The position numbers and the translations under genes are program-made. The notes under the pieces are model-generated. The model did no database searches, had not been told where the DNA came from, and saw nothing but the letters and a program-made list of their open reading frames with translations. A DNA stretch of 64,000 nucleotides from a virus (taxonomy: Duplodnaviria; Caudoviricetes), in IMG/VR virus record IMGVR_UViG_3300020577_004283, positions 4,987-68,986 of that record; one strand, written 5' to 3'. How positions within the stretch are numbered: the stretch's first letter is position 1; each line of letters starts with the position of its first letter. Shown one piece after another: positions 1,495-22,970 of this stretch.

Positions 1495-2830
1495 GCTGGA
1501 GGCAGTGGCCCGAGGCGAAATTGATCGTCTGATGGTCTGCATGCCTCCGGGCCATGCAAAGTCCGTGTATTGCTCTACACTTTTCCCATCATGGTGGTTT
1601 GCCCAGCCGGGTCTTGAACGAACAGCCATGATAACCGTTTCGCACACGAGTGAGCTTGCTGAAACGTTCGGTCGTCGTGTCCGAAACCTCGTGGCCAGGG
1701 AACACGAAATTCTCGGTTATTCTTTGCAACAGGACAGCAAAGCCGCTGGTCGGTGGGAGACCAGCAAAGGTGGCGAATACTACGCTGCCGGCATCGGTGG
1801 TGGTATCACTGGTCGTCGTGCCGATTTGATCGTGATCGATGATCCGGTTAAAGGCAGCGATGAAGCAAAGAGCGAGAAGACTCGGCAACGAGTTTGGGAC
1901 TACTATCGGTCTGAGCTATACACACGACTAAAGCCTGGTGGTCGTATCATCCTCGTCATGACTCGGTGGGATGAGGATGATCTTGGTGGTCGTTTGTTAA
2001 ACGAAATGGGGTCCGGAGGCGATGACTGGGATCTTCTGAAGCTCCCCGCATTGGCCGAGGACCCACGAGACTTTTCGGACGACGCTACAGAGACCTGGGA
2101 GCCTGACCCCTTGGGCCGTCAGCCGGGCGAGGCGCTGTGGCCCGACTGGGAAAGTCGTGAAGCACTTTTGAGGAAACGATTGGCTGTCGGTGAGCTTGAC
2201 TGGTTCGCATTGTTTCAGCAACGGCCCAAGCCACCACAAGGTGTTCTGTTCAACACCGACAAGATCACAACGCTCACGAACCGACCGAACCTGCGATCCA
2301 TCGTTCGCTCATGGGACCTGGCAGCGACTGAACAACAGGGGACCAATGATCCTGACTGGACAGTCGGGACTCTCCTCGGGCGAACCACAGATGATCGTTA
2401 CGTTGTCTTGGATGTTGTCCGGGAACGGTTGCCTCCGAATGGTGTTCTTGATCTGATCACTTCGGTGGCTGACAATGATGGTCGCACTGTCCCGATCCGT
2501 TTGCCAGAGGACCCTGGTCAAGCAGGCAAGAGCCAATCTGCGTTTATGGTCGCCAAGTTGGCTGGTCATAAAGTGACCATGGAGCGTGAAACTGGCAGCA
2601 AAGTCGTGCGAGCCACTCCGTTTATCACACAGGTGAACGTTGGCAACGTGTCCATGCTCGAAGCTCGGTGGAACAAAGGCTTCATCTCCGAGCTTCGCGA
2701 TTTTCCGAACGGCCGCAAAGATGACCAGGTAGACTCCGTCTCTGGGGCGTTCAACATTGTCGGAACGAGACAGCCTGGGTTCCGCATCAGCCCAGACGTT
2801 GTCAGATCTATGGGGATGGCACGCCGATGA
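1298..2830 (+). CDS. terL: terminase large subunit (true start probably somewhat downstream of 1298)
   Basis: Walker A-like MPPGHAKS, GITGRRADLIVIDDP Walker B, VMTRW motif, C-terminal nuclease SWDLA...DDQVDS. Confidence 0.95.
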   Translation: MGMPMSLALMSTSPQSLRKSEIARALQIERELWRRECRRKMTSWAIQALSIQALTPAPHHALLSTKLEAVARGEIDRLMVCMPPGHAKSVYCSTLFPSWWFAQPGLERTAMITVSHTSELAETFGRRVRNLVAREHEILGYSLQQDSKAAGRWETSKGGEYYAAGIGGGITGRRADLIVIDDPVKGSDEAKSEKTRQRVWDYYRSELYTRLKPGGRIILVMTRWDEDDLGGRLLNEMGSGGDDWDLLKLPALAEDPRDFSDDATETWEPDPLGRQPGEALWPDWESREALLRKRLAVGELDWFALFQQRPKPPQGVLFNTDKITTLTNRPNLRSIVRSWDLAATEQQGTNDPDWTVGTLLGRTTDDRYVVLDVVRERLPPNGVLDLITSVADNDGRTVPIRLPEDPGQAGKSQSAFMVAKLAGHKVTMERETGSKVVRATPFITQVNVGNVSMLEARWNKGFISELRDFPNGRKDDQVDSVSGAFNIVGTRQPGFRISPDVVRSMGMARR

Positions 2831-5028
2831 TCAACTGGTTCGTCCGCAAAGGACAGCGTGGGATTGATCGTGTTGAACCCACGATCGTTGTCCCGAAACC
2901 ACGTATCGTTCAGGATGAACGTCCGAAACCTCGTGGTCTGCGCGTCAAGCCTGAACATGTTGCTAACGCCATGATGACTCGGCGTAACGATCCACTGACT
3001 CCGACCAGTGGTCCTCGTGGCATGGACTCAATCGCAAGGACATTCCAGCATGCTCCACTTCCGGCTTTCATTGATGCGCCGGGAGCTGGCGGACTGGCGA
3101 TGGACAGCCAGACGTATGTTGCAGACCCTACCTACATGGCATATGGGCAATGGTCGGAGAACCTTCAGTGGCTTGGCTTCCCGTATCTGGCGGAGCTAGC
3201 ACAACGACCCGAGTATCGGCGTATCAGCGAAACGATCGCCAAGGACATGACCCGCAAGTGGATCAAGGTCCAGGCTGCGGGCGAGGACGACAAGAGCGAC
3301 AAGATCAAGCTGCTTGAAGCAGCGATGGTCAAGCACAAGATCCAGGACAAATTCCGGCGAGCCGCTGAACTTGACGGGTTCTTTGGTCGTGGTCATCTCT
3401 ACATCGATATGGGGACCACGGACGACCCAGCAGAGCTGAAGACTCCGCTGATCTTGAGTCGTCACAAGATCGGCAAGAATAGTGTCAAAGCGTTCAATGT
3501 TGTAGAGCCAACCTGGACGTATCCTGGCTCGTATAACTCAAACGATCCACTTGATCCGGAGTTTTACTTGCCGCGAACGTGGTATGTGATGAGCAAGGAG
3601 GTTCATCGCTCACGGCTGCTCGTGTTCATCTCTCGTGAACTACCTGATCTTCTGAAGCCAGCCTACGCCTTCGGTGGTTTGTCCATGTCTCAGATGGCCA
3701 AACCCTATGTGGATAACTGGTTGCGCACCCGTCAGTCGGTCTCCGATCTTGTCTCTTCGTTCTCGGTCAGTGGACTGAAGACCAATATGCAGGAGATTCT
3801 GAACGAGGGTGGATCTGAGCAGCAGGCGCTCCGCTCGGCCCTGTTCAACCAGTGGCGGTCCAACGCTGGTATGATGATGATCGACCGAGACACGGAAGAG
3901 TTTTTCAACGTAACGACTCCGTTGGGCACTCTTGATCATCTGCAGGCACAGAGCCAGGAACAGATGGCCAGTGTCAGTGGCATCCCACTCACGATCCTGC
4001 TCGGTATCACGCCGAGTGGTCTGAATGCGTCTAGCGAAGGTGAAATCCGGACATATGAAGCATGGATCCACGCCATGCAGGAGCACCTGTTTCGACGCAA
4101 TCTGAACGCTGTTCTTCAGGTGTTGCAACTGGATCTTTTCGGAGAGATTGATCCACACATCGAGTTTGTCTTTGAACAGTTGCACGAGATTAACGACTCG
4201 GAGCAGGCTGGTCTTGCGAAAACCGAAGCTGACACCGACAACGTCTACGTCACGATGGGTGCTCTTGCTCCAGAGGAGGTTCGGCAAAAACTCGCCAATG
4301 ATCCTGACAGCCCCTACTCCGGACTCGACCTCTCACAGCCGCTCCCAGAGCCTGAGCAGGAAGGCGACCCGCTGGCCGGCCCCGACCTTGGTGACGACCC
4401 TGGCGACGACCCAGCCGGCTCTGGCGCCCCACCCTCACCCAAGCCTCCACCCCCGGCTCAGCCGTCACCTGCTGGTGGAGGGCAGTCGCAGGACAAATTC
4501 CCTTTCGCCCAAGACTCGTGGCCAAGGGTCACGCGGCGTGACGTATGTGGCCTCTCGGTTGCGGTTGAAACACGAAGGAACACGATCCGTTCTGGTGTGA
4601 GTGAGGATGGTCGGCCCTGGTCTGTTGTGATGCCTGCAGACTATGGCTACATCCATCGGACCACCAACAACGATGGGGAGCAATTAGATCTTTTCATGGG
4701 TCCTCAGTGGCGTAAAGCCAAGAGCCTGCCAGTCTACGTCATTTCTCAACGTGATCTGAAAACCGGAGGACATGACGAGGACAAAGTGATGGTGGGCTTT
4801 GAGTCGTTGCTCCAGGCCCAACGTTGTTACGATCTTGCCTATCCGCCGGGTGTTGGTCCGCTTCAGCGTGCCGGGGGCATTGAACAATGCTCGTGGGCTG
4901 CTCTGGAAGATTGGTGCGCCGCTGGGGGTGGAGTCGGTGATCTTGCTCAAGACGCCAAGGACTTTGATGAGTCCAAGGTGGAACGTGACTCTGACGGAAA
5001 GTCCGCGAAAAACGCATCTGGAGCATAG
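2827..5028 (+). CDS. portal protein (DUF1073/HI1409-like) with a Pro-rich linker and a C-terminal inorganic-pyrophosphatase-like (InPase) domain
   Basis: Follows TerL; GIPLTILLGITPSGLNASSEGE portal motif; C-terminal DYGYIHRT...DGEQLDLFMGP...DEDKVMVGF matches the InPase domain of polyvalent proteins. Confidence 0.85.
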   Translation: MINWFVRKGQRGIDRVEPTIVVPKPRIVQDERPKPRGLRVKPEHVANAMMTRRNDPLTPTSGPRGMDSIARTFQHAPLPAFIDAPGAGGLAMDSQTYVADPTYMAYGQWSENLQWLGFPYLAELAQRPEYRRISETIAKDMTRKWIKVQAAGEDDKSDKIKLLEAAMVKHKIQDKFRRAAELDGFFGRGHLYIDMGTTDDPAELKTPLILSRHKIGKNSVKAFNVVEPTWTYPGSYNSNDPLDPEFYLPRTWYVMSKEVHRSRLLVFISRELPDLLKPAYAFGGLSMSQMAKPYVDNWLRTRQSVSDLVSSFSVSGLKTNMQEILNEGGSEQQALRSALFNQWRSNAGMMMIDRDTEEFFNVTTPLGTLDHLQAQSQEQMASVSGIPLTILLGITPSGLNASSEGEIRTYEAWIHAMQEHLFRRNLNAVLQVLQLDLFGEIDPHIEFVFEQLHEINDSEQAGLAKTEADTDNVYVTMGALAPEEVRQKLANDPDSPYSGLDLSQPLPEPEQEGDPLAGPDLGDDPGDDPAGSGAPPSPKPPPPAQPSPAGGGQSQDKFPFAQDSWPRVTRRDVCGLSVAVETRRNTIRSGVSEDGRPWSVVMPADYGYIHRTTNNDGEQLDLFMGPQWRKAKSLPVYVISQRDLKTGGHDEDKVMVGFESLLQAQRCYDLAYPPGVGPLQRAGGIEQCSWAALEDWCAAGGGVGDLAQDAKDFDESKVERDSDGKSAKNASGA

Positions 5029-5528
5029 AAGGCAACCGACTTCCACACACCCAAGAGTTTGATCATACCCAGCTAGGCAAGAGAAAACTGGGTTGTCACT
5101 GAAAGATTTGAACCCTAACCTTTCTGACAACGATAGTGTATCTTTTTGTCTCTGGTCTTGACGACAAGAAAAAGATTGAAGTTGGTCGCCTTCTCGAAGT
5201 GTTGGAAGGTAATTTCACTTCATTCACGTCTCGTGTTCATCGTATGTTACACGATCCGAAAGATACTGAGGCATACTTGTCCACCCAGTTGATCTTCGAT
5301 GATTGCATGGGAGCCATGACTGGAAACATCTACGGTCGTGGTCACTCAAACGGCTATTACCGGCAGAATTCGAACCGCCATGCTTCTGAAATGTTCGCAA
5401 ACTACGTGTGCCTGACTCAAGGTCCTAATGGAGCAGCGTTTAAGAAACTTCTTCATACAATTTCCCCTTTGTCATGTAAAGGGTTTGACGCTATACTAGC
5501 CCGTCGAGCCTCGGGTAGTCCCAATTAA
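5029..5528 (+). pseudogene. probable degraded or frameshifted continuation of the portal extension; ORF 5136-5528 resembles the C-terminal half of a zincin-like metallopeptidase domain
   Basis: GHSNGYY...SEMFANY motif without an HExxH; protein-like fragments in different frames, separated by stops, between 5029 and 5135. Confidence 0.4.
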
Positions 5529-5564
5529 ACAATCTTTGCTCTCGGCTTATCACCAGAAAGACAA

Positions 5565-5777
5565 GTGAGCGTGGCGAGAAAAGGCAACGAAGATACGATA
5601 GACGACTACCTCGAGATGTTCGGTGACACACCGACACTGATCGGGTATGGCGACAAAGAACTTCCCAAGGTTCTTGACCTGATGGAAGAAGCCATGGACG
5701 AAGGCGAACCGATATCGGATGATACGATCCGCGAGAAACTCGGCCTGGAGCCTCTGTCTGTGGATGTCGTTATCTGA
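5565..5777 (+). CDS. small acidic protein, immunity-like partner
   Basis: 70 aa, strongly acidic, YLEMFGDTP pattern; RBS-like AGAAAG upstream; stop abuts the MuF start. Confidence 0.6.
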   Translation: MSVARKGNEDTIDDYLEMFGDTPTLIGYGDKELPKVLDLMEEAMDEGEPISDDTIREKLGLEPLSVDVVI

Positions 5778-6613
5778 TGGCGCGCCGGGCGACACGAGTG
5801 AAGACTCTTGCTCCAGTTCGCCCGAACGTTGGTATCGAAGCCTCGTATCGTCGTCGCATGGAGCGACTGATCGACGAGATGAATAACTCCCTCCTCTACT
5901 GGATCTCAGCGCAATGGCGCGCTGATGAGCCGTTGATGGTGGGTGCTGCATCCGACGAGATGATCATTGCTCAAGATGCAGGGCCGACTGTTCTGCTGCG
6001 TCGGATGATGCGCAAATTGGCCAAGCGTTGGCTTGATCGGTTTGACGAGGCGGCTCCGAAGCTGGCGAACTACTTCGCTGCTGAAGCCACCAAACGGGCT
6101 GACATTAATCTACAACAGATCCTGAACGAGGCCGGTATGACGGTCAAGTTCAGCATGACCCCCACAGTGAGAGACGTCCTGGAGGGGTCTATCGGCGAGA
6201 ACGTTTCGCTGATCAAGTCCATCGCCCAAGAGAACCTGTCCCAAGTGGAAGGGATCGTGCTGCGGTCAGCCGCTGCTGGTCGTGACCTTGGTATGTTGTC
6301 CAAGGAACTTCAAGAACGTTTCGGCAGCACTAAGAAACGGGCTGCGTTGATCGCTCGTGATCAGAACAACAAAGCCACTGCGGTCATTACTCGCGCGCGA
6401 CAGATCGAGACTGGTATTCAGCAAGCCCGCTGGCTGCACTCGTCTGCTGGCAAGCACCCGCGACCGGACCATGTTGCGTTCTCGCGTGGCAAACTTGGTG
6501 GCCCCTTCTACGATGTTCAGAAGGGCGCGTTTATTGACGGGGAGTGGATCTTCCCTGGACAACTGATCAACTGCCGGTGTGTCAGTCAGCCTGTAATCGC
6601 GGGGTTCGAATGA
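5777..6613 (+). CDS. head morphogenesis protein (MuF / SPP1 gp7-like)
   Basis: [26 protein letters not shown] and PGQLINCRC motifs. Confidence 0.9.
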
Positions 6614-9252
6614 GCGAACCTCGCGCACTGTTGGCGATGGATCGTTCGATGCGTTCGTTCGACCAAGATGGTCGTTTGCACGTTGAAACGTCTCCGATCA
6701 CCAAAGCCAACGTGTGTCCATACTACGGCCGAGAAATTCCTGGGTTCAAGGAACTTGGTCTGGACGAGAACAAGATCTACAAACTGTTACGTGATCCGGC
6801 GGAACTGGAGAAGGCTGCTAAGACCTTCAACAACATTCCAGTGTTGATTAAGCACATTCCAGTGTCTGCCGAAGAACCGAGCCAAGAAGACGTTGTCGGG
6901 TCAACTGGAACCGACGCAGAATGGTCGGCCCCATACCTGAAGAATAGCCTGGTCATCTGGGTTCAACTGGCCATTGATGCCATTGAGTCCAAACAACAGC
7001 ACGAACTTTCGGCAGCCTACCACTACACCCCTGACATGACCCCCGGTCGGTTCGGAAATGAAGATTATGATGGTGTGATGCGGGACATAAAGGGTAATCA
7101 CGTGGCACTTGTCGAAAATGGCCGTGCTGGTCGTGATGTTGTCGTGATGGATGCTGACTTTGATGAAAGTAAAGTCAAGCGCAGCAGTGGGGGACAGTTC
7201 GCGAGGAGTGCTTCTGGTGCGTCTGAAGGGATGGCTCACCATGCTGCGCAAAGTAACGAACACCGCAAGGAAGGTGGTGGGGGTGGTCATGTCGCACGAC
7301 CCCATGCCCGTGCTTCGCGAGCATTCGCCGAGGCTGCAGAACATTACGATGCCGGTCGGACTGAAGAAGGTCACGCGAAGTATGCTGAAGCTGAGGAGCA
7401 TGCTCGTGTAGCCGAAAAGCGTGCTGCACAACACGAGAAAACCAAAGGGTCTGAGCCGCCTGCGAAGGAAGAGCCTGCGAAGGAAGAGCCTGCGAAGGAA
7501 GAGCCTGCGAAGGAAGAGCCTGCGAAGGAAGAGCCTGCGAAGGAGAAACCTGCGAAGGAGAAACCTGCGAAGGAAGAGCCTGCGAAGGAGAAACCCAAGG
7601 TCAAAGAGAAAGCGACAAAATCTGTTCATCACGGTGAAGAGATGATGCGCCAACTCGGGGTGAAAACTCCTTTGTTCACACCTGATGAACACGGCGGTGG
7701 TGTTGCTGAAGGTCGTTTTCATGGTCCAATGGCTGAGAACGATGCCAGAGACGCACTGAAACAACTCGGGTTTGGTCAAGGAGAACGTTTGCCTGAAAAG
7801 TCGTCTAAATCAGGCAACCGCCAAATCCGGGAATTTGTCACGAAATACACCCACCCTGAAGGGCACGAAGCAACGTTGACGACCACCAACATTGGTGATC
7901 CTTTGGGCCCTCGCGGGAAATGGGTCAGCAGTTCGGACACAGGTGTGTCTGTCAAAGTTTCTCCGCTCAAAAACGGAGAAAAGAGCCAATTTTCTGTTCC
8001 TGAAAACACCAAACCACTACAAACCAGTGGTGTTCATAGTGCGTTGAAAGCATCTTTTCTTCGCCCGAGAACCACCACTGCCACAAGTATTCGTGGTTAT
8101 AGTAACACACATGGAGACTACCAGGTTGGTGGTGGCGGCTCACACCATATTGTGACACCGGTCCTTCCGAATATTGTTGGCTCTGGTGGTCGTGAAGAAG
8201 CTTCGAAGCACAAGTTGTCCGCGATTAGCGACGCACTGAAGAAAGCTGGTGTCCACCACGAGATGGGTGATGGTCACGTGAAAATCCCATATCACCAGCC
8301 AAAGACCACCCAAGCTCATGACTCTCAACTGAGGAACAACAACATGGCGGCGACGAAGATGGTCCTGCGAAACGCAATCGTTCAGGGTGCGCTTGCAGCT
8401 CACCTTCGACCGCTGATTGCGCAGGACGCGAAGATCGACTTGCGTGCACTGCTCACCAACACTGCGCACAAGGACTGGCAGACTCAGAAGGACCGGCTCG
8501 TGGCTCTTCTGCCGTCCTATCTGAAGGACAAGACCTTGGCCCAGGACGCAGGGGTCGGTGAGCTCGTCGAACTCCTGGACGGTCTCGGCGGGGGTAACGG
8601 TGCCCCGCCCGAAGACGCAGCGCTCGTGTCTGACGATGAGCAGGCTGGGCAGGGCGAACAGGACGCCGATCCGCTGGACACCAACATGGTGGCCGGCGAT
8701 GACGACATGGCTGAACAGGTCCAGCAGCTGCTGGCTGGTAAGTTGTCGGACGAGGATATGACAGCCCTCCTCGATATCATCAAGCCCGCCGAGGCGACGA
8801 TGATCGGCGAGGAAGCTGAGGAAGACGCGAAACAGGACGCCATGGCCAATGGTGGCGAAGGCGACGATGACGAGGACCCTGCGAAGGACAACGCGATGAA
8901 GAACATGGTCAGCAAGCCGGCGATGGACGCCGCGCTGAGGGCGACGCGTGATCAGGTGCGGCGGGAAACGATCGCCCACATGAACGCCATCGCCGCAGCG
9001 ACTGAGGCGGTGCAGCCCTACGTCGGGAAGCTGACCGTCGCGATGGACAGCGCTTCCGACATCTACAAGTTCGCTCTGAACAGCCTCGGCGTCGACGTCA
9101 AGGGCGTTCACCCGAGCGCCTTTCCGAAGATGCTGGCGCTGGTCCCCAAGCCGTCCGACACCCCCCGGACCACTCGTGTTGCCATGGACTCCAAGTCCAC
9201 GACAGCGTTCTTGGAGCGGTTCCCCCATGCAGCCCGTATGCGGGTTCGGTAA
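6610..9252 (+). CDS. DUF2213-family prohead protease/scaffold with a large central insertion
   Basis: N-terminal [16 protein letters not shown]...ELSAAYHY...[12 protein letters not shown] domain; acidic scaffold-like C-terminus; ATG 6610 overlaps the MuF stop. Confidence 0.85.
7459..7593 (+). repeat. nine tandem 15-bp units (CCTGCGAAGGAAGAG / CCTGCGAAGGAGAAA) encoding [10 protein letters not shown]
   Basis: Read directly: 5x PAKEE, 2x [15 protein letters not shown], in frame within the DUF2213 gene. Confidence 0.98.
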
Positions 9253-9264
9253 AGGAGAAGATCG

Positions 9265-10188
9265 ATGGGTTTCCAGACTGTCGTCAACAATCAGCCGGCC
9301 CCCGCAGTCGCCGGCGATTTCGCAGGAGCCAACCCTCGCGCCAATCTGCTGGCTGGCGCTGGTGCTTTGGTCGCGGGCCTCAATGGCCTGATCGTGGGCC
9401 GTTTCGGCTGGGTGTCGGATGTGGACCTGGTGTCCACGACCAATTCTGGTGCCGGTGTCCCCGACGGCTTCGTCGCCCGTGAACAGCAGGGTCTGATCAC
9501 GGTCTTCCTGGCCGAAGCCAGCATGGTTGTGCCGCGTGGCCTGCCTGTCACTCTCTATACTCAGGGTGATTTCTGGGTCAAGAACGACGGCAACACGGTC
9601 GCTCAGGTCGGCCAGACTGCCTACGCGAACCTGGTCAACGGTCAGGTGAGCTTCGGCTCCTCGGGTCTGACAGCGTCGTTCGCCGACACCACCGGTTCGA
9701 TCGCCGCCAGCACCAATGGGTTCACTGGTTCCATCGTCGACGATATCCTGACTGTCACTTCCGTCAGTTCCGGCACCATCGTCCCTGGCACCCTGATCTC
9801 CGGCACTGGCGTCGCTTCCGGCACCCTGGTCCAGAGCCAGCTGACCGGCACTGCCGGCGGCGTCGGGACGTATGCTGTGACTCCTGCGTCGCAGAACGTC
9901 GCCGCTGGCACCGTGATGACCGGTGGTTACGGAACCTACACCGTCAGTGCATGGAACAACGCTGTTCCTGTCGCAGTCGGTGCAGTCCTGTCGGGGTCTG
10001 GCGTGACCGCTGGCACCACGGTCATGGGCTTCGGGACCGGCACTGGTGGGACCGGCACCTATTACGTGACGCCATCGCAGACCGCTGGCAGCACGAACAT
10101 CCTGGCCACCATCACTGTCGCGACCAAGTGGAAGGCAGCGTCTTACGCCGCTGTCGGCGAACTGGTCAAGATCAGCTCCTGGAACTGA
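9265..10188 (+). CDS. head decoration / capsid-associated structural protein with two inserted Gly/Thr-rich beta modules
   Basis: [21 protein letters not shown]-terminus, located between scaffold and major capsid gene. Confidence 0.75.
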
Positions 10189-10200
10189 GGACAAGCATCG

Positions 10201-11244
10201 ATGCGCAATCCTGATCTGATCCGGCTCGAGAGCCTGTTCGGCATCCACATCCCCGAGGTCAACGATTTTCTGAACCCAATGCTGGCTCAGGACTTTCGCT
10301 TGGCGATGGACGCCCAACCTGGGCTGGTGACCGTTTCCAACTCGGGCATCCCGTCCTATCTCACCAACTACATCGATCCGAAGCTGATCGAAGTCCTGGT
10401 GTCCCCCAACAAGGCCGCCGTCATCCTGGGCGAGGTCAAGAAGGGCGACTGGACGACGCTGACGGCGACGTTCCCTGTGGTCGAACACACCGGCGAAGTC
10501 TCCAGCTATGGCGACTGGAACAACAACGGTTCGACCGGCGCCAACACCAACTTCCCTCAGCGGCAGTCGTATCACTACCAGACGATGACGCAGTGGGGCG
10601 AGCGACAGCTGGAGATGGCGGCCCAGGCCAAGATCGACTGGGCGTCGCGTCTGAACATCGCCAGCGTGATGGTGCTCGACAAGTTCCAGAACCAGTCCTA
10701 CTTCTTCGGCGTCGGCGGTCTGCAGAACTATGGTCTGTTGAACGACCCGAGCCTGTCCGCGGCACTGACTCCGGCAGTCAAGGCTGCCGGTGGTGTGGCC
10801 TGGATCAATTCGGCTGGTCAGATCATCGCGACGGCCAACGAGATCTACGCCGATATCCAGGCGCTGTTCATTCAGTTGACAGCGCAGGGCAACGGCTTGA
10901 TCGAAGCTGGCTCCTCGATGTGTCTGGCGATGTCTCCGACGGCCTCGGTTGCTTTGACGGCGACCAACAGCTACAACGTCAACGTCTACGACCTGCTGAA
11001 GAAGAACTTTCCGAACATCCGGTTCGAAACGGCTCCTCAGTATGCGACGGCGGCGGGACAGCTGGTTCAGCTCATCGCGTCGGAGGTCGAAGGTCAGGAG
11101 ACCGGCTACTGCGCCTTCACCGAGAAGCTGCGTGCCCACGCCATCGTCAAGGAGACGTCGGCGTTCAAGCAGAAGAAGTCGCAGGGGACCTGGGGGGCCA
11201 TCATCTTCCAGCCGTTCGCCATCGCGGCGATGTTGGGAGTCTGA
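10201..11244 (+). CDS. major capsid protein (DUF2184-like)
   Basis: 347 aa, strongly biased codons; GDWT...FPVVE.TGE..SYGD and GLLNDP motifs; N-terminal AMDAQP. Confidence 0.9.
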   Translation: MRNPDLIRLESLFGIHIPEVNDFLNPMLAQDFRLAMDAQPGLVTVSNSGIPSYLTNYIDPKLIEVLVSPNKAAVILGEVKKGDWTTLTATFPVVEHTGEVSSYGDWNNNGSTGANTNFPQRQSYHYQTMTQWGERQLEMAAQAKIDWASRLNIASVMVLDKFQNQSYFFGVGGLQNYGLLNDPSLSAALTPAVKAAGGVAWINSAGQIIATANEIYADIQALFIQLTAQGNGLIEAGSSMCLAMSPTASVALTATNSYNVNVYDLLKKNFPNIRFETAPQYATAAGQLVQLIASEVEGQETGYCAFTEKLRAHAIVKETSAFKQKKSQGTWGAIIFQPFAIAAMLGV

Positions 11245-11248
11245 GTCC

Positions 11249-11611
11249 ATGGCGAGCACTGACACTGTCACGGTTGCCTGCAAGTTGCCGAACGGCCTCC
11301 ATCTCGACGTGAACGGGTTCGATCGTGTCACCATCAAGGGGAACGCTCTCCCCTTCGGTGAGTCTGCGGTCGACTACCGAATCGTCGGCGGCTACGCTCT
11401 GACCCCCGGAGTGCCTCGGGATCTCTGGGACGCATGGCTGAAGGACCGGACTACGATGGACATCATCGTGAAGGGGATCGTGTTTGCGCAGGAGAAGCCT
11501 GCCGACGTGGTCGCTGAAGCGAAGAACGGCGCCAAGGTGATCACTGGTCTGGAACCGATCGATCCCGACAAGCCGGGCAATGGCCTGGAGCGGGTTCCGG
11601 TGGGCGGCTGA
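11249..11611 (+). CDS. conserved virion-associated protein
   Basis: ATG 11249 (MASTDTVTVACKLPNGL); position after the major capsid gene. Confidence 0.7.
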   Translation: MASTDTVTVACKLPNGLHLDVNGFDRVTIKGNALPFGESAVDYRIVGGYALTPGVPRDLWDAWLKDRTTMDIIVKGIVFAQEKPADVVAEAKNGAKVITGLEPIDPDKPGNGLERVPVGG

Positions 11612-13519: not shown

Positions 13520-14236
13520 ATGGCAGCACTCGTCGACTTTGGAGAAGATGTAATTCTCACGGCGGTCAGGAGCGTGCTCACCACGCTTCTACCCCCGGAC
13601 GTCGACGTGATCCGTGGTCAGGTCAATCGGGTTCCGGAACCTCGTGGTAACAACTTCGTTGTCATGACACCCACCATGAGAACGAGGTTGTCCACGAACA
13701 TTGACTCCGTCACTGACACCATTGTCAGTGGGTCTGTTTCCAAAAACGTCCTGATTGTGGATGACATTGTTGACGGTGTTCTTCGTGTTGGCCAAATGGT
13801 GTTTGGGGGTGGGTTGCCTTTGAACGCTGCGATCCAGGCTTTCGGGACAGGTTCCGGGGGGGTGGGGACCTACTCGTTGAATGTTTCGGCTGAAATCACA
13901 TCGACGGTGTTCTACGCTGGTGTTAAGACAGCCATGGCTCCCAGTGAATATCGGCTGCAACTGGACTTTCATGGTCCTCTGGGTGACCAGAATGCCCAGA
14001 TTGCGTCTACGATGTTTCGTGATGAGTATGCCTGCTCGCTGATGCCGCCTGATGTCCAGCCGCTCTATGCTGATGATCCGAAACAAATCCCATTCATCAA
14101 CGGCGAACGGCAATATGAAAACCGGTGGACTCTTGACTTAATGCTGCAGACCAATCAGACCGTGATTGTTCCTCAGCAGTTTGCAGACCAGTTGTTCGCC
14201 GGTCTGATCAACGTTGATGTTGTCTATCCTCCATAG
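13520..14236 (+). CDS. tail terminator / neck protein with an inserted beta module
   Basis: VIRGQVNRVPEP and QLDFHG...QPLYADDPKQ.PFINGE.QYE.RW motifs; precedes the sheath. Confidence 0.75.
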   Translation: MAALVDFGEDVILTAVRSVLTTLLPPDVDVIRGQVNRVPEPRGNNFVVMTPTMRTRLSTNIDSVTDTIVSGSVSKNVLIVDDIVDGVLRVGQMVFGGGLPLNAAIQAFGTGSGGVGTYSLNVSAEITSTVFYAGVKTAMAPSEYRLQLDFHGPLGDQNAQIASTMFRDEYACSLMPPDVQPLYADDPKQIPFINGERQYENRWTLDLMLQTNQTVIVPQQFADQLFAGLINVDVVYPP

Positions 14237-14247
14237 GAGCACGGTAT

Positions 14248-15978
14248 ATGTCCGGCAGTGCAATTCCGGCCTCGGCAATCGTTTCGGTCATTCCGAGTGT
14301 CATCAGTGCTGGTGGCAACGCTCTCGATCTGAACGGGTTGCTGCTCACACGAAACACCCGAGTGCCCATTGGGTCCGTGGTGTCGTTCTCTTCTCAGGCT
14401 GATGTTGCCTCGTATTTCGGGGCGACGTCGACTGAGGCCAACGCTGCCAGCAACTATTTCTTGGGGTTCGACAACTCGAACGCCAAGCCGGGGGCGATGC
14501 TGTTTTTTCAGTATAACTCGACAGCAGTTCGCGCCTACATGCGCGGCGGTGCTCTGACTGCGGCGAACCTGGCTCAGCTGATCACCTTGACCGGCACGAT
14601 CAGCATCACAATCGATGGTGTCGTTCGCACCAGCTCCTCGGTCAATCTGACCAGTGCGACGTCGTTCTCGGACGTTGCTGAGTTGGTCACTGTTGGTCTA
14701 AATCTTGCTGGTCCGGCCCAGGCGTCTGTCACAGCGGCCATCTCTGGTACGACGATGACGGTATCGGCCGTGGCCTCGGGCACACTGGCGGTCGGCCAGG
14801 AGGTCCGCGGTGTGGGTGTCACAGCAGGCACCCTGATCACTGCTCTGGGAACCGGTGTCGGTGGCACTGGAACTTACACTGTCGGGATCAGTCAAACAGT
14901 GGGCAGCAGTGCGCTGACCACCAACACTCCGCTGATCACGTTTGACTCTGTTTCGCAAGCGTTCCTGGTTCAGTCGCCCACCACTGGTGCGTCTTCGACC
15001 ATGGGTTATGCTACTGGCCTTCTTGGCCCACAGATGAAGCTGAATGCGATCCAGGGTGCTGTTCTTTCGCAGGGTGCGGCTGCGACTAGCCCTTCGGCCG
15101 CGATGAACACGATCGTTTCCCAGACCCAGAACTGGGCAACGTTCACCACCGCGTTTGATCCTGATGCGTCGGGCTTTGCTCAGAAGCAGCTTTTCGCTGA
15201 CTGGGTCAACGCTCAGAACAGCCGGTATCTCTACATTCCGTTCGACACCGACGTGTCCCCGACACAGTCGAACAACGCGACCAGTTCCTTCGGCGCCGCG
15301 TTGAAGAACGCTAACTACACTGGTGTCGAATTGGTCTGGGCGTCCAGCACCCTTGTCGGCATCGCCTTGTGTTCGTTTCAGATGGGTGCTATCGCATCCA
15401 TCGACTTCACGCAGACCGATGGCCGGGCGACGATGGCATTCCGTTCCCAGACAGGGATCGCTGCCGATGTTGTCAACCAGACGGTGGCTGACAATTTGAT
15501 CGCCAATGGCTACAATTTCTACGGGGAGTATGCCACGGCGGACGATCAGTTCATCTTCTTCTACCCTGGTTCCATGATTGGCCCATATCTCTGGGTCGAC
15601 AGCTACATCAACCAGATCTGGTTGAACAACCAGTTCCAGTTGGCACTGATGGTGCTGCTGGTGCAGATGAAGTCGATTCCCTACAATCAGCAGGGTTATA
15701 CGCTGATCAAGGCTGCTCTACAGGATCCGATCAACCAAGGTCTCAACTTCGGTGCCTTCCGTGCTGGAGTGACTCTGTCCAACGCCCAAGCGGCGGAAGT
15801 GAACATCGCCGCTGGTGTCAAGATCAGTGACACCCTCAGCACCCAAGGGTGGTATCTCCAAGTGAAAGATGCCATTCCACAGGTCCGGGCTGCGCGTGGT
15901 TCTCCTCCCTGCACGTTCTGGTATATGGACGGTCAGTCGGTCCAGAAGATCAACCTGGGCTCTGTGAACGTTCAGTAA
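14248..15978 (+). CDS. contractile tail sheath protein (DUF3383-like)
   Basis: IPASAIVSVIPSVI, QNWATF, GYNFYG, IPYNQQG and WYMDGQSVQKI motifs. Confidence 0.9.
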   Translation: MSGSAIPASAIVSVIPSVISAGGNALDLNGLLLTRNTRVPIGSVVSFSSQADVASYFGATSTEANAASNYFLGFDNSNAKPGAMLFFQYNSTAVRAYMRGGALTAANLAQLITLTGTISITIDGVVRTSSSVNLTSATSFSDVAELVTVGLNLAGPAQASVTAAISGTTMTVSAVASGTLAVGQEVRGVGVTAGTLITALGTGVGGTGTYTVGISQTVGSSALTTNTPLITFDSVSQAFLVQSPTTGASSTMGYATGLLGPQMKLNAIQGAVLSQGAAATSPSAAMNTIVSQTQNWATFTTAFDPDASGFAQKQLFADWVNAQNSRYLYIPFDTDVSPTQSNNATSSFGAALKNANYTGVELVWASSTLVGIALCSFQMGAIASIDFTQTDGRATMAFRSQTGIAADVVNQTVADNLIANGYNFYGEYATADDQFIFFYPGSMIGPYLWVDSYINQIWLNNQFQLALMVLLVQMKSIPYNQQGYTLIKAALQDPINQGLNFGAFRAGVTLSNAQAAEVNIAAGVKISDTLSTQGWYLQVKDAIPQVRAARGSPPCTFWYMDGQSVQKINLGSVNVQ

Positions 15979-21542: not shown

Positions 21543-22970
21543 ATGAGTGGCACGACGAGCGTTCCGTTTCCTGTGCTTGGTCCTCGGGGGTATATCATCC
21601 CGCCCGAGACTGAGATTTTGCTCGGTGTCCAGGCCGACCTGAACGCCGCGTTTGGTGGAACATTGAACCCTGCTCTGGAAACTCCTCAGGGCCAATGGTC
21701 GATGAGCACCACCGCGATTATCGGTGACACCAACGACCAGTTTCTCCTACTGACCAACAATGTAGACCCTGCCTACGCCAGTGGTCGCATGCAGGATGCG
21801 ATCGCTCGTATATACTTCCTGGAGCGACTGCCTGCCCAGCCGACGGTTGTCAGTGCGCTTTGCACCGGGTTGGCCGGTGTTGTGATCCCAGCAGGGTCCA
21901 GAGCCCAAGATCAAAACGGCAACATTTACGTATGTGCGTCTGGTGGAACCATCGGTTCAACAGGCACCGTGACGCTGAGCTTTGCCAATGTGGTGACGGG
22001 TCCGATCCCTTGCCCAGCGACTACTCTTGACACCATCTACCAGGTTGTCCCTGGATGGGATACCATCAGCAACCCAGCCGATGGTGTCGTTGGCCGTGTC
22101 GTTGAGTCGCGCGCCGATTTCGAGTTGCGACGCCAGCAGTCAGTGGCTGTCAACGCGCTCGGGTCCCTGACTTCAGTGTTTGGGGTCGTCGCCCAGGTGT
22201 CGGGTGTTGTCGATCTCTACGTGACCGAGAACTCGACTGGATCCCCTGTCACGCTTGACGGTGTGACTCTGCCTGCCCATTCGCTGTATGTGTGTGTTGC
22301 AGGTGGTGCCGACGCCGATGTCGCACACGCCATCTGGTCCAAGAAAGCTCCCGGATGTGCCTATGCCGGAGGCACGACTGTTGTCGTCCAGGACACGACT
22401 GGGTATTCACCCCCATATCCTTCCTACAATGTGAAGTTCCAGCGACCTACAGAGCAGCCTTTCGTCTTCACAGTTACGATAGCGAACAGTGCCCAGGTTC
22501 CGAACACTGCACAATCGGAAGTTCAACAGGCCATCCTTGATGGCTTCTCTGGTGCCGACGGTGGGCAACGGGCCAAGATCGGTGGCACAATCTACGCCAG
22601 TCGATATTACACGAACGTAGCCATTCTCGGGTCCTGGGCTAATATCATTTCAATCAAAGTTGGTTCAACCGCGACGACAGCGGCAGCATTCACAGCATCC
22701 ATTGCTGGCTCTGTCATGACCGTAACGGCTGTTGGGTCTGGCACACTCGCCGTTGGTCAAACGATCTTTGGAGCTGGTATCCCCGTTGGTGTTCGCATCA
22801 TCAGTCTCGGGACTGGTGCTGGAGGGACCGGAACCTACAATATCAACATCCCTCAAACCATTGGCAGTGAGTCCATGACTACGGTTCTGCCTGGACTTGA
22901 TAGTGTGGTTATCGGAGTTGCTCACGTTCCTGTGTTATCGGCTGACAACATTCGTTTGGTGCTGGCCTGA
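21543..22970 (+). CDS. baseplate J-like wedge protein with an inserted beta module
   Basis: LETPQGQ, SGRMQDAIARIYFLER, ESRADFELRR and LYVCVAGG motifs. Confidence 0.9.
   Translation: MSGTTSVPFPVLGPRGYIIPPETEILLGVQADLNAAFGGTLNPALETPQGQWSMSTTAIIGDTNDQFLLLTNNVDPAYASGRMQDAIARIYFLERLPAQPTVVSALCTGLAGVVIPAGSRAQDQNGNIYVCASGGTIGSTGTVTLSFANVVTGPIPCPATTLDTIYQVVPGWDTISNPADGVVGRVVESRADFELRRQQSVAVNALGSLTSVFGVVAQVSGVVDLYVTENSTGSPVTLDGVTLPAHSLYVCVAGGADADVAHAIWSKKAPGCAYAGGTTVVVQDTTGYSPPYPSYNVKFQRPTEQPFVFTVTIANSAQVPNTAQSEVQQAILDGFSGADGGQRAKIGGTIYASRYYTNVAILGSWANIISIKVGSTATTAAAFTASIAGSVMTVTAVGSGTLAVGQTIFGAGIPVGVRIISLGTGAGGTGTYNINIPQTIGSESMTTVLPGLDSVVIGVAHVPVLSADNIRLVLA

Follow-up and report, generated by a model that had tools for sequence, protein, structure and literature searches.

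Ala-x-Asp sites in the head proteins of a contractile-tailed phage point to probable cleavage by a DUF2213 protease and probable release of fused domains inside the head

In phage T4, a cleavage motif with an acidic residue at the P1 position is reused in capsid, scaffold and packaged proteins, and cargo is freed inside the head and then ejected (PMC5694885). The motif reads [LI]-x-E in T4, S/A/G-x-E in phiKZ and A-x-E in SPN3US; in the latter two phages the protease also cuts itself at its own C-terminal end, and ejection proteins are processed (PMC5694885). Cargo fused to a structural protein has been described in the portal-InPase fusion BcepF1.124, which was proposed to be packaged and injected, in a study that mentions neither a prohead protease site nor the His-Pro-Arg junction motif treated below (Iyer, Burroughs and Aravind, 2017, PMC5512222). 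Published papers on PB1-like phages, recent cryo-EM studies of therapeutic members included, call the DUF2213 protein of these viruses a scaffold, and leave its protease role and motif unnamed. Here we analyse 64 kb (one strand, positions 4,987 to 68,986; hereafter the window) of the 68,986-bp IMG/VR record IMGVR_UViG_3300020577_004283, which is rated 100% complete. An Ala-x-Asp tripeptide recurs in its head proteins and very probably marks the cut sites of a head-maturation protease in the capsid, portal, MuF and protease-scaffold proteins, and extra domains fused between such sites are probably released inside the head as cargo.

The window belongs to an uncultured contractile-tailed phage, with genes for sheath, tape measure and baseplate. 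Its nearest cultured relatives are Aeromonas, Klebsiella, Pseudomonas, Burkholderia (Bcep781 group) and Ralstonia phages, with the PB1-like phages more distant. The head genes follow the order TerL, portal, MuF, DUF2213-scaffold, decoration, capsid, which places a scaffold-linked protease gene between portal/MuF and capsid:

1298-2830: TerL, adjoining the portal gene
2827-5028, plus strand: portal-InPase fusion of 733 amino acids (aa), with Pfam Phage_portal_3 at aa 120-472 (2.4e-86) and InPase at aa 570-697 (3.6e-31)
5777-6613, plus strand: MuF-like head morphogenesis protein (Pfam Phage_Mu_F, phrog_324)
6610-9252, plus strand: protease-insert-scaffold gene of 880 aa, its ATG at 6610 overlapping the MuF stop (DUF2213, 1.9e-44; phrog_2229, head maturation protease)
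9265-10188, plus strand: decoration protein, XM1 gp53-like (Pfam PF23982)
10201-11244, plus strand: major capsid protein (phrog_264)

A preliminary description of this DNA had noticed the recurrence of the tripeptide and suggested an enrichment test; every coordinate it gave was right when we rechecked the window translations. We took A-[MQ]-D as the strict motif and compared the head protein set (2,572 aa) with the other 54 open reading frames (ORFs) of the window (15,268 aa). The head proteins hold 12 strict sites against 1.25 expected, and 20,000 composition-matched shuffles of each protein gave a mean of 1.2 and a maximum of 7, never 12. The other 54 ORFs stay at background level (6 sites, 4.5 expected), their six matches falling in tail, baseplate and replication proteins. 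When every tripeptide was counted without a preset pattern, AMD (6 against 0.46 expected) and AQD (6 against 0.78) came out on top, apart from a low-complexity EEPAK repeat, and the pattern is therefore no artefact of post-hoc definition. No strict site occurs in TerL of the window, and none in the decoration protein of the window or of seven cultured relatives, which serves as an internal negative control. Both proteins act outside the prohead. The enrichment repeats in the seven relatives, where portal, MuF, protease-scaffold and capsid together have 41 sites against 6.2 expected; in the remaining ORFs of these loci the count is 10 where 12.3 are expected (Fisher p=6e-15). The P2 residue varies (F, L, H or E) at some homologue positions with Ala and Asp kept, so that the AHD↓S of the window is covered by the motif (the arrow marks the putative cut). 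Two further tetrapeptides listed as sites in the preliminary description, SQDK at about 4486 and KQDA, lack the P3 Ala and find no comparative support or conservation, and we do not retain them.

The capsid carries two copies of the motif:

10285-10293, plus strand: LAQD↓F in the capsid propeptide, a lineage-variable second copy upstream of LAMD↓A
10303-10311, plus strand: LAMD↓AQP, conserved; propeptide aa 1-37, predicted mature N-terminus A38

Across 121 capsid homologues (64-78% identical) A35, D37 and A38 are invariant and M36 is kept in 108, and none of the 121 has an A[MQ]D after aa 70. The N-terminus of the major capsid protein of KPP12, a PB1-like phage, has been determined by Edman sequencing (PMC3474789). 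In the PB1 capsid this N-terminal sequence comes directly after ...FRSGSAMD, which means that the bond cut is the Asp↓Ser that follows A-M-D. The PB1/E217 cut aligns within about two residues of D37↓A38 of the window. The published E217 map shows no trace of capsid residues 1-65, and the Pa193 capsid retains a scaffold fragment. One A-x-D cut is thus shown experimentally, in the capsid of a relative only.

The candidate enzyme is the N-terminal part of the protease-insert-scaffold protein:

6634-6642, plus strand: LAMD↓R at the N-edge of the protease fold, with A9 and D11 near-invariant
6643-7152, plus strand: DUF2213 protease fold (aa 12-181), ending in VVVMD↓A, with D181 invariant

This domain models as a serine protease of the T4 gp21/herpesvirus-assemblin fold. 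The AlphaFold2 model, built from 42 sequences, has a predicted local distance difference test score (pLDDT) of 82.5 and is disordered from residue 181. Its top Foldseek matches are assemblins and gp21 only, the best being T4 gp21 5JBL (Z 10.6, root-mean-square deviation 3.0 Å over 133 aa), and herpesvirus assemblins score Z 6-8.7. Residues H82, S134, D154, H164 and D181 are invariant in 42 homologues, and the first four are spaced like the gp21 and assemblin residues, a likeness judged from sequence spacing; H82, S134 and H164 are the putative catalytic residues. The border at D181 reads VVVMD↓A in the window and VVVGD↓S in the homologue consensus. We found no solved structure and no paper on the cleavage specificity of the DUF2213 family, in PDB sequences and in a literature search on DUF2213. 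The preliminary description had placed the sites at domain borders, and they do fall there: in the protease protein, aa 9-11 lie at the N-edge of the modelled fold, whose order stops after D181, and the insert finishes with AHD at 569-571; in the portal, aa 91-93 precede the core, 561-563 lie seven residues before InPase and 707-709 ten after it. Its reading of the motif as a protease cleavage signal, and with it the cleavage rule, is well supported by the enrichment, the conservation, the PB1-like Edman terminus and the adjacent gp21/assemblin-like domain.

The portal and MuF proteins each have a site near the N-terminus:

3097-3105, plus strand: LAMD↓S, portal N-terminal site (A91-D93), predicted removal of aa 1-93
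5969-5977, plus strand: IAQD↓A, MuF aa 65-67, with an equivalent N-terminal site in 4/7 cultured relatives having a MuF gene

A search of PDB sequences matches the window portal to the Pa193/E217 portal. A91 and D93 are invariant in 10 aligned portals, and an A[MQ]D lies shortly before the core in 95 of 120 portal homologues (in PB1, VAMD↓S at 74-77). For Pa193, the published map lacks the first 93 aa of the portal, and liquid chromatography-mass spectrometry did not detect them either. Over the portal homologues, the density of the strict motif per 1000 aa is 10.5 in the N-terminal region, 0.43 in the core and 1.5 in C-terminal extensions.

The C-terminal part of the protease-insert-scaffold protein contains a row of conserved sites, preceded by a putative start of its own:

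8331-8346, plus strand: GAGGA Shine-Dalgarno, 8-nt spacer and in-frame ATG at 8344, predicted internal start of a 302-aa scaffold-only product
8344-9252, plus strand: scaffold part with five conserved sites, A and D columns near-invariant in 42 aligned homologues
8419-8427, 8539-8547, 8920-8928, 9040-9048 and 9181-9189, plus strand: scaffold sites IAQD↓A, LAQD↓A, PAMD↓A, VAMD↓S and VAMD↓S

The 120 protease-scaffold homologues have 523 sites, with AMD 12-fold and AQD 9-fold over-represented, and the consensus of these sites is [KR]-[LVIPM]-A-[MQ]-D↓[AS]-A-[IL]. The ATG at 8344 lies seven residues past AHD↓S. Five of the seven relatives have an in-frame ATG with a Shine-Dalgarno-like word 3' of the protease domain (aa 182-199), and a sixth has only a GTG with a Shine-Dalgarno (aa 237). 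The nested genes I/Z of Mu and C/Nu3 of lambda use an internal start in the same frame to make abundant scaffold; its sequence is also the C-terminus of the protease and targets the latter to the prohead. The internal Shine-Dalgarno and start in the window and its relatives suggest a scaffold-only product of the same kind, and we predict a nested gene read from ATG 8344.

Between protease and scaffold lies a region that sets this phage apart from all homologues:

7156-8322, plus strand: 389-aa insert, aa 183-571, ending in AHD↓S (8314-8322), absent from all homologues
7458-7589, plus strand: 15-nt tandem repeat within the insert, 8.8 copies, encoding (EEPAK)n (Tandem Repeats Finder)

It sits exactly between D181 and the first conserved scaffold helix, and is made of a junction motif (7156-7224), a basic His-rich stretch, the (EEPAK)n repeat and an orphan region of about 230 aa. 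Its reading frame has no stops, against 3-16 in the other frames. Homologues reach at most 34% query coverage and none has the insert. A phmmer search with the insert against 1.84 billion representatives returned only the insert itself, and there was no match in Pfam, PHROGs, ESM Atlas or PDB sequences; the single-sequence AlphaFold2 model of the orphan region (pLDDT 51) is too poor for a fold search. Since the insert lies 5' of the internal scaffold start, it would ride only on the rarer, protease-bearing long form. The orphan insert and its placement upstream of a conserved, predicted internal scaffold start are new, and the preliminary description had missed the internal start.

In the portal, a putative enzyme domain stands between two sites and is followed by a short tail:

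4342-4515, plus strand: Pro/Gly/Asp-rich linker ending in FAQD↓S (4507-4515), from the translation
4516-4953, plus strand: InPase module, aa 564-709, between FAQD↓S (4507) and LAQD↓A (4945) (Pfam PF18823)
4954-5025, plus strand: portal C-terminal tail AKDFDESKVERDSDGKSAKNASGA, a degenerate junction copy found by motif scan

This is an effector domain fused to the portal of a portal-terminase phage, with portal 120-472 and InPase 570-697 in one ORF. The match to InPase, a family resembling type I inorganic pyrophosphatases, reaches 108 bits against a cut-off of 26.8. Its acidic residues E581, D605, D621 and D650 are invariant in 10 portal-InPase fusions, and the acidic active-site pattern of the family is kept. 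In PB1, too, the portal (L008 9111-11420) has a C-terminal InPase domain (Pfam 2.2e-43, aa 639-757), which falls within the stretch of portal residues 529-765 that has no density in the E217 and Pa193 maps.

Accessory domains on both the portal and the protease-scaffold, as claimed in the preliminary description, are found in the homologues. Portals carry InPase, ART, topoisomerase-IB-like, zeta/AAA_33, NUDIX and LPD3 domains; among the protease-scaffold homologues listed, over half have a NUDIX domain and a few also an ART. Where a NUDIX domain is N-terminal, A-[MQF]-D stands between it and the protease fold in 47/54 homologues, at the position of the LAMD↓R site of the window. Other homologues place the sites as follows:

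P0045: ART 109-276, AMD 307, NUDIX 314-431, AQD 437, DUF2213 450-617
P0127: AMD 1026 before ART 1035
P0129 (portal): InPase ends at 925, AQD 935
Bcep781 portal (cultured): AQD↓A 570 before NUDIX 576

The P0129 portal also has a Hint/intein inside its portal domain, and its InPase is followed by a topoisomerase-IB-like domain. The further claim that sites flank cargo stands in part: A-x-D is often exactly between Pfam domains, but the claim was overstated for portals, where the strict motif is sparse in C-terminal extensions. We reject the idea that strict A[MQ]D generally flanks cargo in the C-terminal part of portals, given 1.5 sites per 1000 aa and many fusions with none.

A composite junction motif, A-x-D↓A-x-F-x-E-x-x-H-P-R-x(3-8)-G-x-F-G-x-G-G-G, occurs in homologues right after the portal core or the protease. 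It has 32 canonical copies in the homologues, nearly all directly after x-x-D. The window has two copies, both degenerate (DFDESKV[EK]R...G...SGA), one at the very end of the portal (4954-5025) and the other at 7156-7224. It may serve as an exosite for the protease, as a targeting signal or as a linker.

As a whole, these observations are best explained by a DUF2213 protease of gp21/assemblin fold that matures the head, cuts after Asp and frees cargo domains, a reading to which we give a probability of about 60%. The serine protease would cut after Asp in hydrophobic-Ala-x-Asp↓(Ala/Ser), with Met or Gln as the usual x and His, Phe, Leu or Glu as other choices. In the prohead, the capsid would lose aa 1-37, the portal aa 1-93 and MuF about 67 aa, the scaffold would be chopped at its five conserved sites, and the protease would free itself at LAMD↓R and D181. 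The protease-scaffold gene would probably be read in two forms, an abundant scaffold-only product from 8344 and a rarer full-length one, whose scaffold tail may bring protease and 389-aa insert into the prohead, on the model of Mu I/Z and lambda C/Nu3. The insert would then be released by cuts at VMD↓A and AHD↓S, and twelve portal-borne InPase domains by cuts at FAQD↓S and LAQD↓A. The scheme would be completed if the borders of the cargo are cut, the pieces stay in the head and the host receives them by ejection; cargo release is plausible.

Several points weigh against this. The proven A-x-D cut is limited to the capsid of a relative, and the phage itself is known from its sequence alone. The nested scaffold gene has the same basis. 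A site 3' of InPase is present in 3/10 aligned portal-InPase fusions, many long portal-cargo fusions have the N-terminal site only, and the PB1 portal-InPase lacks a strict site before InPase; given the sparsity of the strict motif in portal C-terminal extensions, cargo may often stay tethered. Lacking homologues and a confidently modelled fold, the insert may serve as a disordered spacer instead of functional cargo. Finally, the conservation of LAMD↓R and VMD↓A could be structural, because both border the fold so closely.

Much of this would equally be expected if the motif served ordinary trimming only, with InPase tethered to the portal crown, the insert a tolerated spacer and nothing delivered. 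Most long portal-cargo homologues have the N-terminal site alone, as just noted, the lack of density for 529-765 in both maps, E217 and Pa193, would be expected of a flexible tether no less than of a cut, and the insert is an orphan, partly of low complexity. Against such plain trimming, A-x-D is near-invariant exactly before InPase in the 10 portal-InPase fusions even though the surrounding linker cannot be aligned, multi-cargo homologues have sites precisely between Pfam domains, and the 228-aa C-region of the window portal has 2 strict sites against about 0.1 expected. We hold this alternative to be unlikely, if far from negligible. Much less probable still is that A-[MQ]-D has chiefly a structural or binding role, such as a helix cap or a scaffold-shell contact, and that the PB1-like capsid cut after AMD is a single coincidence. 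Several sites do lie in scaffold segments predicted as helices, where the context recurs (KPAMDAAI, VAMDSAE), and those at aa 9-11 and 179-181 abut the protease fold. Such a role is difficult to reconcile with a tripeptide that capsid, portal, MuF and scaffold have in common despite their unrelated folds, always outside conserved domains, is missing from the decoration protein and TerL, parallels the A-x-E of SPN3US and the [LI]-x-E of T4, and immediately precedes the only experimentally known terminus of the family. Chance or a compositional artefact, suggested by Ala-rich head proteins and by a pattern defined after it had been seen, is rejected by the composition-matched shuffles, by the seven-relative comparison of independent genomes, and by capsid conservation together with positions kept across hundreds of homologues.

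Beyond this phage, we put forward tentatively, and would sooner bet against it than for it, that DUF2213-protease phages share a modular cut-and-release system, in which a domain that stands between A-x-D sites, be it in the portal, in MuF or in the long form of the protease-scaffold, is co-assembled, freed in the head and ejected. The junction A-x-D↓A-x-F-x-E-x-x-H-P-R...G-x-F-G-G-G would often introduce the domain, and the 389-aa insert would be a new ejected effector that, owing to its position 5' of the internal scaffold start, matches the protease in copy number. The phages concerned form a very large group, including therapeutic Pseudomonas, Acinetobacter, Burkholderia and Klebsiella phages. 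In the searchable literature, neither the Ala-x-Asp rule for DUF2213 proteases nor its role at cargo junctions appears to have been described. The rule (P3 Ala, P1 Asp) offers a concrete, testable specificity for a protease family whose function is still given as unknown in Pfam. It predicts the mature termini of capsid, portal, MuF and scaffold, as well as which fused enzymes (InPase, NUDIX, ART, topoisomerase-like) sit free in the heads of cultured phages, and it would account for the unmodelled regions in the E217 and Pa193 maps. Such a site might also be used as a natural cleavable linker when foreign proteins are to be loaded into phage heads.

Two small ORFs lie between portal and MuF:

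5136-5528: ORF of 130 aa with no family match
5565-5777: ORF of 70 aa just 5' of MuF, a candidate gene that holds a further A-M-D (EEAMD↓EG)

The first contains HRMLH and SEMFANY, a faint resemblance to a zincin with the catalytic Glu replaced (HRMLH, not HExxH). No Pfam/PHROG metallopeptidase match indicative of a zincin-like MPTase was obtained in the portal, MuF, P0004 or these two ORFs. The decoration protein (9265-10188) has two copies of an inserted module of about 70 aa (phrog_21413 / phrog_38233), which also occurs in the neck-region protein 13520-14236, the sheath 14248-15978 and the baseplate wedge protein 21543-22970. The GC content at third codon positions (GC3) is mosaic across 6610-11244: scaffold, decoration and capsid have 0.75-0.84, and portal, MuF, protease and insert 0.47-0.64. 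The long antisense ORF at 8140-11337 results from this high GC3.

T4, phiKZ and SPN3US are well-known cases in which a motif directs the processing of head and ejection proteins, and cargo riding on portal or MuF has likewise been published (PMC5512222). With the polyvalent and portal-fused effectors of Iyer et al. (2017) the present system shares its domain repertoire of ART, NUDIX, InPase and zeta kinase; unlike there, where processing was assigned to zincin-like MPTase domains (PMC5512222), this head module has no MPTase family match. The PB1-like Pbunavirus phages (KPP12, E217, Pa193) and the Bcep781-like phages have homologous portal, MuF, DUF2213 protease-scaffold, decoration and capsid proteins, but capsid identity is about 46-59% or less and the 389-aa insert is in none of them. 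From Mu I/Z and lambda C/Nu3 the locus differs in its protease family and in the cargo insert between protease and internal start, the internal product being a prediction here. It resembles phiKZ gp175 and SPN3US gp245 in the acidic P1, the P3 Ala, the loss of a portal N-terminal propeptide and the multi-site propeptides (PMC5694885). Those phages, however, use Glu and have genomes of 240-280 kb with separate ejection proteins, whereas the present phage has Asp at P1 and a 69-kb genome, its protease shares a gene with the scaffold, fused or nested, and its cargo domains are built into structural genes. With T4 gp21 it shares the protease fold (our model against 5JBL) and a short acidic-P1 motif across several head proteins; it differs in P1 Asp (Glu in T4) and P3 Ala, the T4 portal is unprocessed, and sequence similarity is undetectable. 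The cargo of T4, IPI-III and Alt, consists of separate proteins with an N-terminal tag of 10-20 aa ending in [LI]-x-E, whereas here it is fused in-frame to portal or protease. The programmable loading invoked in the preliminary description is the T4 capsid-targeting-sequence idea and already known; the present system works like T4 capsid-targeting-sequence cargo but is not a member of that class.

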